Source: a virus (Duplodnaviria > Heunggongvirae > Uroviricota > Caudoviricetes). Taken from it: 64,000 bases of DNA. Below, piece by piece: positions 1,360 to 21,114 of the stretch; position 1 is the first letter of the stretch, and each line of letters begins with the position of its first letter. The notes beneath the pieces are model-generated. The model worked only from the letters and a program-made list of their open reading frames with translations, had not been told where the DNA came from and ran no database searches. The DNA lies in IMG/VR virus record IMGVR_UViG_3300025853_000035, positions 64,001 to 128,000 of that record. The stretch is one strand, 5' to 3'. Both the position numbers and the translations under genes were made by a program.

Positions 1360-1435
1360 TGGAGGATCGACTGGGGCTTGAACCCAGCACCTGCGGAGTA
1401 AGAATCCGCCGCTCTACCTACTGAGCTATCGATCC
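1360..1435 (-). tRNA. tRNA-Lys(CTT)
   Basis: Cloverleaf; loop TTCTTAC; CCA. Confidence 0.92.
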
Positions 1436-1653: not shown

Positions 1654-2175
1654 TCAGAACCAGCAGTCGTTGAAGCATTGCTCCGCGATCTCGCGGTGCG
1701 TGGGAAAGCACAGATCAGCGACCTGCTCATACTCAGTGAGGAGGCCGAACTCCATGTTCTCCGGGCACAGCCGAAGCCGCTCATAGTGCCCGGCGGTCAG
1801 CACCCATGGGTTACGGAATACCGCCATCGTCTGCGCGCCGCCCGCTACCGGATAGCTCTGCACATATTCGAGGCTGTCGGCGGTTATGGTCCGGCCGGTC
1901 TCTTCCAGCCACTCACGACAAGCGGCTTGTTCGAAGGACTCACCGCGATTGACATGCCCGCCCAAGAACGCCCAGCCGCCACGGTGAGGCTCGATCGCCC
2001 GCCGGGCCATGAGAAGACCGCGCCGGCCGATGCCGACGCGAACCCGCTGGAGAACGACGACGACACCGGTGGGACTTCCCCACGTCATCGCCGAGCAGCC
2101 GGGGCACTTCATGGGATACTCGTGATCCACATGAGCCGTCCCGCAGGTCGAACAGAACAAATCCATCACGCTCAC
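1654..2175 (-). CDS. NUDIX hydrolase with N-terminal zinc ribbon
   Basis: GGHVNRGESFEQAACREWLEETG Nudix box; CxxC...CxxC. Confidence 0.9.
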   Translation of the reverse strand: MSVMDLFCSTCGTAHVDHEYPMKCPGCSAMTWGSPTGVVVVLQRVRVGIGRRGLLMARRAIEPHRGGWAFLGGHVNRGESFEQAACREWLEETGRTITADSLEYVQSYPVAGGAQTMAVFRNPWVLTAGHYERLRLCPENMEFGLLTEYEQVADLCFPTHREIAEQCFNDCWF

Positions 2176-2552
2176 TTTCTATCGTCCTGCTGACGATGCA
2201 GCATCTCGCGGATCGCCGCGAGGTCGTTCTTGATCTGCTCCTGCTCAGCATGGGTGAACGCATCACTATCCACGATCAGCTTGGCCGACATGATTGCCGT
2301 CATCACGGGAAAGGCGAAGCCCGGCCCGAAGTGCATGAGGAAGATAGCCACCCCTCGGCCGACCACCGTGACGGGATACATATCGCCGTATCCTGTCGTG
2401 GTCGCGGTGGTGAAGGCCCACCACAAGGAATCGCCAATCCCATATTTGGCTTCGGCCAGATCAAACAGCCCGGCGGCGAGGACCACGACAATGCCGTAGA
2501 CGATCGCGACGGTCAGGAAGCTCCGGCCGAGGAGGTGGACTATCTTTCTCAT
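2172..2552 (-). CDS. Two-TM potassium channel (KcsA-like)
   Basis: TM helix - WWAFTTATTTGYGDMYP pore motif - TM helix - short coiled coil. Confidence 0.92.
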   Translation of the reverse strand: MRKIVHLLGRSFLTVAIVYGIVVVLAAGLFDLAEAKYGIGDSLWWAFTTATTTGYGDMYPVTVVGRGVAIFLMHFGPGFAFPVMTAIMSAKLIVDSDAFTHAEQEQIKNDLAAIREMLHRQQDDRK

Positions 2553-5223: not shown

Positions 5224-5255
5224 AAACGAAAAAGGGCCGCTTTCGCGACCCTTTC
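5224..5255 (-). terminator. Intrinsic terminator between leader L2 and the first tRNA (putative attenuator)
   Basis: 10-bp stem AAAGGGTCGC/GCGGCCCTTT, GAAA tetraloop, TTTTTCGTTT tail. Confidence 0.85.
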
Positions 5256-5286
5256 GAAAAATCCCTTATGAGACGAGACGACCGGG

Positions 5287-5379
5287 TCAGTCGTCCTTCG
5301 TCGGGAGCGCGCACGCAATCACGGCCGGGACCATATTGGCCGGCGCTGCGATCATGTTGATGGCGGGAATGTTGCGCAT
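5287..5379 (-). CDS. Leader peptide L2 (30 aa, MRNIPAINMIAAPANMVPAVIACALPTKDD), putative attenuator peptide
   Basis: Hand-translated; residues 3-22 are all N/I/P/A/M/V, the amino acids of the eight downstream tRNAs; AGGA...GAG upstream. Confidence 0.87.
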   Translation of the reverse strand: MRNIPAINMIAAPANMVPAVIACALPTKDD

Positions 5380-5428
5380 GGGAAGCTCGTGAAATCCTGA
5401 AAAGCGGAGAACCGCTGTTGAAGTCCGA

Positions 5429-5457
5429 ATGATAATTGAAACTTGACTGGATGTCAA
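5429..5457 (-). promoter_or_regulatory. sigma70-type promoter of the L2 operon
   Basis: TTGACA (5457-5452), 17 bp, TATCAT (5434-5429). Confidence 0.85.
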
Positions 5458-5479
5458 GAGAAAAATTACACTGGCTATG

Positions 5480-6490
5480 AAGACACTGAACCTCGCGAAT
5501 ACGCGGGTTAGGTCGCATGTCGGGTAGTTCCGTCGGTCAACGGCTCAGCATCTACAAAGCGAGTGAAATTGTGGTCGGCTTGCTGGCACCAATCCAGAAG
5601 ACAGGTCCGCAGACCTGACCAACCAACCACGGTGATGAATATAGACAGGCTGAGACTACACCCGTTGCGATCTGTCGTTCGGAGGATTACGGAACCCTTG
5701 CGAGGCACCTTGCCACCTTATCCACCAAGCCCTCTTGCGAGTAGCCCGGTCCCAGATCAACGCCGCCTATTTTTCCCGATTCTCACGGGGCCGCTGGCAT
5801 TAGCGGCGACACTGCATGATATTCGGCGATTCCCAGACCGTTGACGTGTTACCGCCATTAAGCCCCCGCGACGGGGCAACGAACTTTCTTTCACCAACCA
5901 CTCTTCGCTTTGCCGGCTAGGAGCAGACCGCATTGGGCGAACCCTGCGGTATTAGGCGTCTTTCACATACAGTCGAAGCAATCTTTGCGTTTTGATATGA
6001 ACTGCTGGGTTCGAACCAGCGATCCACGGATTAAGAGTCCGTTGCTTTACCACTAAGCTAAGTTTGCAAGCCACCGAGACGAGCTACCTCCTAGTTCCAC
6101 TGATGTTTCCACCTGCGGAATGCTAGTCGCCTCATGTCCGTCATGTCGCTAAACACTACCAAGACCGTCGAGCAGGACCTTCACCCTACCAAACTGATCA
6201 TTGCTCTTGACCGCTAAGTCTTGAACTGATGACCTTGTGCTTTATCATCCGCTGCCGCAGGTTAGACACAAGCTCCGGGTTCTACTCCGGCGTTCGAGGT
6301 CACCGATCTGGCTCTCCTCTATCCCCTCAAGGGCCTTGTCCTGCTAACAGCCTAGCTCCCGTTACCAGAAGCGATCCTCGCGGACCTGACTGCACTTGCT
6401 TGAATTGACCGGCAAGCCGGCGGAGTTATGTGGCCATACCTCCTTTACGTTGGTTACCCAACGCTATCCCCCTCAAGCGGGGTGTTCCTG
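5480..6490 (-). ncRNA. Large structured non-coding RNA candidate (GOLLD-like), boundaries approximate
   Basis: ~1 kb with no credible ORF, own promoter, many hairpins, embedded tRNA-like fold, next to tRNA operons. Confidence 0.6.
5993..6067 (-). tRNA. tRNA-Lys(CTT)-like element embedded in the large RNA
   Basis: Canonical D arm, ACGGA/TCCGT stem with loop CTCTTAA and TTCGAAC T-loop, but mismatched acceptor stem ending TCA instead of CCA. Confidence 0.7.
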
Positions 6491-6492
6491 AG

Positions 6493-6521
6493 CCTCTAAC
6501 AACTGATTCGAGCAATGTCAA
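6493..6521 (-). promoter_or_regulatory. Putative promoter of the large RNA
   Basis: TTGACA (6521-6516), 17 bp, TAGAGG. Confidence 0.55.
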
Positions 6522-6529
6522 GTCATAAT

Positions 6530-6772
6530 TGCAAGAGGCAATCCAAAACTTACCGCGTGACAGCCTCACTTGCGCTGGGATGGCCTCCCGATTAGGGGCC
6601 GGCGATCTCGGAGCTTCCTCCGTTCTACCCGCCCTTTACTCGGAGCGTATCCATACCAGACCGGCCAGTGCTTTCGTTCATGTCCAAGTTCGACACTACT
6701 TGTCCGCAAAGTGACTCCGGCTGAGTCTGCCCCTCGGTAAATCTTGGAGCGTTCCGCATCGCTGCGGTGTGA
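6530..6772 (-). ncRNA. Candidate ~240-nt structured RNA
   Basis: Follows TTGACA(6806-6801)-17-TAGATG(6783-6778); multiple hairpins; no credible ORF. Confidence 0.4.
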
Positions 6773-6836
6773 AAGGGCATCTACATTCACAATTGCAGTA
6801 TGTCAATTAAAAAATGCAGTGCCCTCAAAAAAAAAG

Positions 6837-7007
6837 TTAGGCCGCTTCCCGAACCTGCTTCACGGCGCTCTTGTCGATGGTCTGGGGCGCATAGTCAGTC
6901 TCGGCCTCGCGCACGGTCAGGTTGAAGCCGTTGATCGCGAGCACGTCGAACCACGTCGCATCATCCAGTTTGTTGAAAGCCACCTGCTGGCCAACCTCGG
7001 GGTCCAT
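6837..7007 (-). CDS. Small hypothetical protein (56 aa, MDPEVGQQVAFNKLDDATWF...)
   Basis: Hand-translated; strong AAGGAG RBS; below the ORF-track cutoff. Confidence 0.7.
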   Translation of the reverse strand: MDPEVGQQVAFNKLDDATWFDVLAINGFNLTVREAETDYAPQTIDKSAVKQVREAA

Positions 7008-21051: not shown

Positions 21052-21070
21052 CCGACATTCTCACTTGACA
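21051..21070 (+). promoter_or_regulatory. Conserved promoter element
   Basis: ACCGACATTCTCACTTGACA. Confidence 0.72.
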
Positions 21071-21114
21071 TTCGGTCAAGTTTCAATTACCAACACACCA
21101 TCGAAAGAGACCCG

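Follow-up and report, generated by a model that had tools for sequence, protein, structure and literature searches.

A GOLLD RNA at the head of a phage tRNA array carries a tRNA-like module whose L-shaped fold is retained by selection

Selection retains the L-shaped fold of a tRNA-like module embedded in a phage GOLLD RNA, whereas the acceptor end, CCA and anticodon of the module are not maintained. The module lies in a 64,000-nt stretch of DNA (hereafter the window) that is part of a virus record of 151,382 bases (151 kb; IMGVR_UViG_3300025853_000035). Our analysis supports the assignment of its locus to GOLLD, a known family of giant cage-forming phage RNAs. The family, the genomic location and the embedded tRNA had all been published beforehand; the covariation of tRNA positions 15 and 48 and a decay test of the modules are new in this analysis. 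The locus, in itself unsurprising, offers a handle on the function of GOLLD.

Family assignment and extent of the RNA

A preliminary description of the locus, made from sequence alone, had proposed a GOLLD-like RNA. Covariance-model searches bear this out: the Rfam GOLLD model (RF02032) matches positions 6133-5647 of the minus strand over all model positions (1-416) with 140.1 bits (E 1.2e-38), whereas the ROOL and OLE models gave no match up to E 10 over 5250-6900. The gathering score of RF02032 is 150 bits and the window's match falls below this cut-off, so that a standard gathering-score Rfam scan missed the RNA while a search in E-value mode found it. Compared with Rfam GOLLD, the low score probably results from the tRNA insert and two 3' insertions. 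Clade mates score above 150 bits (L016 172, L109 159, L019 158, L214 157), and scores elsewhere were 120 for XM05, 142 for vB_EliS-L02 and 187 for Sinorhizobium phage Phosso. Among 46 viral loci retrieved with a 3'-domain pattern, 41 match RF02032 and 35 exceed the cut-off, including L016 and L019; no match was obtained in 14 control genomes. The locus combines a 3' domain with covarying helices, a 5' domain, a total length of about 800 nt and a position in a phage genome beside a tRNA array. Structure is conserved in relatives, with covariation in 78-79 homologues, and the full-length match and the covarying long-range helices together support the assignment.

Based on the RF02032 match and a seven-sequence alignment, the GOLLD RNA has a length of about 845 nt (5645..6487, minus strand), its ends being placed by conservation and by the promoter. 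Conservation among relatives starts just past the promoter (ca. 6487) and stops at ca. 5645, and the originally proposed length of about 1 kb with an end at 5480 therefore had to be revised. The sigma-70-type promoter TTGACA-17-TAGAGG (6493..6521, minus strand), already proposed as the locus's own, consists of TTGACA at 6521-6516, a 17-nt spacer and TAGAGG at 6498-6493. Its -10 box is weak (3/6) and a consensus promoter scan did not list it, yet TTGACA-17-TAGAG is kept in four relatives (XM05, L019, L109 and L011). The spacer (6499-6515) contains one GANTC site, and two such sites are found in each of the same four relatives. GANTC is the CcrM methylation motif of Alphaproteobacteria.

The reported absence of a credible open reading frame also holds. 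Stop-free frames of at least 60 codons are placed differently across seven relatives, without a conserved frame common to them, and the annotations of XM05 and vB_EliS-L02 contain nothing at the GOLLD locus. G+C content is 0.51-0.57 at the locus and 0.59-0.68 in neighbouring genes.

Downstream of the conserved RNA lies a variable 3' trailer (5460..5644, minus strand), which has no BLAST match in relatives and may be co-transcribed. An 8-nt motif is all that it has in common with XM05 and L016. The trailer has a folding z of -3.07 and a 35-nt match at window positions 21058-21092, and its alignment did not reveal a convincing common fold. Matches from a scan with a 3'-end pattern arose mostly by chance. 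In XM05, a terminator-like hairpin directly follows the conserved GOLLD end. No such hairpin was found in the window before 5458, and the primary transcript could thus approach 1 kb. Of four hairpins listed earlier as evidence for dense structure, the first three are present where described, whereas the fourth (5617-5602) falls into the trailer, which differs between relatives.

Genomic setting

The GOLLD gene, on the minus strand, heads an array of 27 free tRNA genes that extends downstream on the same strand. The helicase of this phage is 78% identical to that of XM05 and 73% to that of vB_EliS-L02, both Erythrobacter phages, and 68% to that of Sphingobium phage Lacusarx, and the host is therefore probably a sphingomonad. 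Within the tRNA array, NUDIX hydrolase and small potassium-channel-like genes are found at 1654-2552 (minus strand). A glutathionylspermidine-synthase-like gene (PF03738; 2811-3960, minus strand) occupies two frames (model 1-84 and 102-371), and the frame switch near a C run at ca. 3670 may be genuine or a sequencing error. A Band_7 gene lies outside the window at C1 20422-20961. An RtcB RNA ligase gene (G000:C1 52326-53468, minus strand) is located outside the window, at the far end of the tRNA array. RtcB was found here and in five of 15 related records, carriers including XM05, vB_EliS-L02 and the GOLLD-less Lacusarx. RtcB therefore does not track GOLLD, and a link between the two was rejected.

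Upstream of GOLLD and outside of it, a separate structured RNA of about 235 nt (6541..6775, minus strand) has its own TTGAC promoter near 6805. A long terminal helix closes the structure, and two-sided changes occur in 20 of its 56 pairs. This RNA is conserved in XM05, L109, L011, L214 and L215, is located downstream of GOLLD in L016 and occurs without GOLLD in Lacusarx (L004 8595-8355). It has no match in Rfam and possibly represents an uncatalogued family, which would make it more novel than the GOLLD finding.

Conserved structure of the GOLLD RNA

The hairpin-rich 5' domain (6075..6487, minus strand) shows 69-80% identity in L159, L016, L109, XM05 and L019 as well as compensatory changes, and its last helix (6133-6079) corresponds to the first hairpin of the Rfam model. 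The conserved 3' domain (5645..5992, minus strand), covered by the RF02032 match, starts with the A-rich AAACGCAAAG and ends in a terminal hairpin. The A-run preceding it is conserved, and a profile search recovered the domain in 168 loci, redundant ones counted. The alignment of seven close relatives predicts 242 pairs, and in 95 of them both sides have changed.

Long-range pairings were evaluated in 78-79 non-redundant homologues against partner-shuffled controls, which ignore relatedness. The helix of 5973-5966 with 5818-5811 (5811..5973, minus strand), which is the closing helix of the Rfam model, is paired in 98.9% of cases in 78 homologues compared with 59.4% after shuffling. Within 5760..5959 (minus strand), the pairing of 5959-5956 with 5763-5760 reached 98.1% (63.9% shuffled) and a loop-linker pseudoknot of 5798-5796 with 5767-5765 reached 97.9% (92.2% shuffled); for each of the three pairings, 0 of 2000 shuffles attained the observed value. 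By our mapping onto env-38, this pseudoknot is probably L22-J17/22. A hairpin at 5861..5877 (minus strand) has a loop with a self-complementary GC/CG dinucleotide, GC or CG being present in 78 of 79 homologues. The env-38 cage uses a self-complementary GC/CG loop in bridge B8 (PMC12286853), and we regard the loop as a candidate for L21a of that study and for this half-shell bridge. A helix that closes the linker around the module is plausible; its pairing of 85% is barely above shuffled (136 of 2000 shuffles reach this value).

Folding z values were -2.97 for the 5' domain on its own strand (-0.13 on the opposite strand), +0.9 for the 3' domain and -2.3 and -3.1 for coding controls. This measure fails to separate the locus from the controls and was not used as proof, for which we rely on covariation. 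By analogy with solved GOLLD relatives, the RNA probably assembles into a hollow cage.

The tRNA-like module

The tRNA-Lys(CUU)-derived module (5993..6067, minus strand) is located in the variable linker, flanked by the last 5' helix on one side and by the A-rich opening of the 3' domain on the other. The tRNA model RF00005 matches 6067-5996 with 62.3 bits. The D, anticodon and T arms are intact, G15 faces C48, and the 7-nt loop CUCUUAA has U33 and a purine at position 37. In the acceptor stem, 2:71 and 3:70 are mismatched, 1:72 is a G.U pair and only pairs 4-7 are Watson-Crick, while A73 is followed by UCA rather than CCA. The tRNA-Lys(CTT) fold with a broken acceptor stem and TCA end had been recognized before and agrees with our results, which also support the non-chargeable look of the module. 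Measured against a functional tRNA, the module has the arms and tertiary signatures but not a 7-bp acceptor, an encoded CCA or a conserved anticodon; CCA addition by the host is conceivable. GOLLD linkers were already known to hold tRNAs or pseudo-tRNAs (PMC6582537, PMC12990946, PMC12286853), separate expression of the mycobacterial GOLLD pseudo-tRNA was not detected (PMC6582537), and the linker of env-38 is disordered and faces the cage interior (10.1101/2024.12.08.627333).

Modules and free tRNAs of the same loci were parsed by one rule that ignores acceptor stem and loop size and demands nearly intact arms, yielding 56 non-redundant modules and 443 free phage tRNAs. The first acceptor pair (1:72) is formed in 45% of modules compared with 89% of free tRNAs, a perfect acceptor is found in 9% compared with 80%, and CCA in 16% compared with 91%. 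In contrast, the anticodon stem is complete (5/5) in 55 of 56 modules (98%) and in 78% of free tRNAs, and perfect D and T stems are seen in 91% and 95% of modules (79% and 93% of free tRNAs). The module subset found without a tRNA motif in the query gave the same picture; for the 80-odd metagenome loci found via a T-loop pattern, T-loop conservation is circular. The anticodon stem is perfect in all 31 modules with at least two acceptor mismatches; if decay proceeded uniformly at the acceptor rate, about 19% would be expected with the same parser threshold.

Complementary bases occupy positions 15 and 48 in 50 of 56 modules (20.7 when shuffled) and in 20 of the 21 modules in the set found without tRNA motifs. 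The pair alternates between G-C, A-U and, rarely, U-A, and G15 occurs with C48 in 8/8 independent pairs on the GOLLD tree (p 0.008). U15-A48 was found in 8/56 modules and in 8/368 free class I tRNAs. Further, U8/A9, the D-loop GG and the T-loop signatures are retained, and the arms show many compensatory pair types. [quoted passage not shown] Retention of the arms together with this covariation indicates that the L-shaped fold is under selection.

The anticodon behaves differently. The 56 modules carry 20 triplets, five of the loops are stop-reading, seven have A34 and seven of the modules have loops of 6, 8 or 9 nt; 43 anticodon changes are needed over 58 tree rows. Among the nine closest modules (the window's clade and L220), four have the canonical Lys(CUU) loop, and the other five comprise two with G33, one UCU, one UAU and one 9-nt loop. 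L019 and L220 have nearly identical modules with different anticodon loops, which shows that anticodon change happens in place. Lys is the commonest module identity (14/56 compared with 27/416 free tRNAs) and U36 is found in 29/49 modules compared with 128/358 free tRNAs, an excess that fits tRNA-Lys ancestry or a possible loose Lys/U36 bias. Pairing of the anticodon loop back onto GOLLD was not found, with a best Watson-Crick run of 5.16 compared with 5.21 for swapped loops and no consistent place.

The module is absent from several GOLLD lineages (nine changes on the tree), whose linkers measure 30-59 nt, and is partial in L040 and L118, where the D arm was lost. At the other extreme, L011 and L109 have six of seven acceptor pairs, a canonical Lys loop and CCA, and five of the 56 modules pass all tests for a chargeable appearance. 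These range as a natural series from nearly intact tRNA-Lys (L011, L109) to frayed modules with changed anticodons. L011 (2650-2870) and likewise L031, L045 and L048 represent a natural GOLLD variant (Rfam 122 bits) that is missing about 250 nt from its 5' domain and retains the nearly intact tRNA-Lys(CUU) with CCA. In the linker of L022 (7615-7700), the tRNA-like element is circularly permuted, with the T arm and CCA ahead of the D and anticodon arms. Unannotated GOLLD RNAs are also present in Phosso (L003 3929-4397) and in the Pseudaminobacter soli and Novimethylophilus kurashikiensis genomes (L201, L202). The culturable Erythrobacter phages XM05 and vB_EliS-L02 and Sinorhizobium phage Phosso thus carry the same RNA unannotated, and Lacusarx, with the same gene order and no GOLLD, is a natural GOLLD-less relative.

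Possible function of the module

On balance, we consider it probable that the module is an accessory, uncharged, shape-only tRNA mimic shown in many copies by the cage. The promoter of the GOLLD gene would drive synthesis of an RNA about 845 nt long. Covariation shows that this RNA folds into the 5' and 3' domains, and it probably assembles into a hollow cage. The tRNA gene from which the linker module descends was most likely one for tRNA-Lys. The module itself is most likely tethered and uncharged, and its many copies could serve as docking sites or as bait for host factors that recognize the elbow and the anticodon stem. Putative partners are defence nucleases that cut tRNAs or enzymes of tRNA processing. 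AriB recognizes the anticodon stem, the D-loop and other tRNA parts (PMC12409363) and RNase P measures from the tRNA elbow (PMC4919913), so that shape-reading partners exist in principle. We call the module accessory since it is missing from several GOLLD lineages and from the closely related phage Lacusarx. The comparative result makes the elbow and stems, rather than the anticodon, the parts of experimental interest.

Some observations count against a shape mimic. The covariation could partly be inherited from repeated capture of real tRNAs, and proteins may have no access to a module enclosed in the cage. Absence of the module from several lineages and loss of the D arm in L040 and L118 speak against it, as do the few chargeable-looking modules and the near-complete ones of L011 and L109. 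A more specific version of the shape mimic, which we regard as doubtful, is that cages with 10-14 tethered uncharged mimics trap tRNA-targeting defence nucleases by shape while the anticodon loop drifts. If true, GOLLD would be an RNA-only anti-defence device that shields the phage tRNA array.

It is similarly doubtful that the module acts as structural filler, a compact self-folding insert preventing misfolding of the cage, or as a processing handle that separates 5' and 3' domains. Its position within the 85% pairing-compatible linker-closing helix would suit such a role, as would the tolerance of GOLLD for short linkers without a module. Any stable hairpin would do as filler, yet the 15-48 pair, U8/A9, D-loop GG and T-loop signatures are retained. 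Frayed acceptor ends and absent CCA would weaken recognition by RNase P, which counts against a handle even though measurement from the elbow would favor one.

The preliminary description had suggested a decoy for Lys-specific anticodon nucleases; the idea might be broadened to U36-preferring enzymes. In its favor, Lys is the commonest identity and U36 is in excess. Known targets of AriB are Lys(UUU), Thr(UGU), Asn(GUU) and Thr(CGU) (PMC12409363), and the phage encodes RtcB. The free tRNA-Lys(CUU) gene, described as intact at 1360 and located at 1360-1435 (minus strand), has U32/C38 in a non-standard loop, a type of change proposed for anticodon-nuclease evasion, while the module loop is standard, which fits evasion by loop mutation (PMC10264068). 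However, free Lys tRNAs of other GOLLD phages and related loci mostly have standard loops, the canonical Lys loop is missing in five of the nine closest relatives, the anticodon is replaced again and again over the tree, and a Lys ancestor with U/A-rich drift explains the bias equally well. Since neither charging nor Lys identity is under selection, a Lys-specific decoy is unlikely, and the case for it is weak at best.

We consider it quite unlikely that the module is stored cargo, an embedded pre-tRNA-Lys guarded by the cage and released by RNase P, 3' trimming and CCA addition. This 'inhibited storage' was proposed in PMC12990946 and pictured in PMC12286853, and the nearly complete, CCA-bearing tRNA-Lys of L011 and L109 as well as A73 and the canonical CUCUUAA loop in the window are in line with it. 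On the other hand, the module combines two neighbouring acceptor mismatches with a missing CCA in a genome where 26 of 27 free tRNA genes encode CCA, free Lys(CUU) and Lys(UUU) genes are already present in the phage, and the scarcity of chargeable-looking modules (5/56) speaks against storage for most members of the family. A neutral relic, that is, a tRNA gene captured from the adjoining array and decaying without function, would agree with several independent module losses and the remnants in L040 and L118, but is very improbable and largely refuted, as only the acceptor end and the anticodon have decayed, whereas many compensatory pair types and tertiary covariation are seen in the arms.

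Comparison with known systems

Compared with a working phage tRNA (RF00005; the free Lys(CUU) at 1360-1435), the module is alike in its cloverleaf, D- and T-loop signatures and 7-nt CUU loop. It differs in sequence, in the broken pairs 2 and 3 and missing CCA, and in being covalently embedded. A resemblance may also be drawn to YrlA-type Y RNAs (10.1101/312249), tRNA mimics that likewise show a tRNA elbow as part of a larger RNA and do not decode. The order of the module is normal, not permuted, RF02553 (YrlA/Y RNA) has no match at the locus, and no Ro60/TROVE gene was found in this genome; a Ro60 connection was therefore rejected here. Ro60/TROVE genes occur in two of 15 related records, and Phosso encodes a TROVE protein.

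Descriptions of GOLLD in Mycobacterium tRNA arrays (PMC6582537; Morgado et al. 2020 as cited in PMC12990946) likewise place a tRNA-like element in the J13/15 linker; the module of the window differs from those inserts in being Lys(CUU)-derived and in belonging to a phage of Alphaproteobacteria. The family-wide pattern of retained arms and 15-48 pair with loss of acceptor and anticodon was not found in the published GOLLD passages covered, and GOLLD is absent from a 2026 preprint on bacterial tRNA mimics. The closest counterpart of the RNA as a whole is GOLLD as known from RF02032 and from env-38, which forms a 14-mer cage (Kretsch et al. 2025, PMC12286853). The RNA of the window agrees with this family in its full-length model match, its length (about 845 nt), its place as a phage gene heading a tRNA array, its two domains with a variable linker, its covarying long-range pairings and its GC/CG loop. 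It differs by an additional hairpin downstream of the L22-type loop, which is common to its clade.
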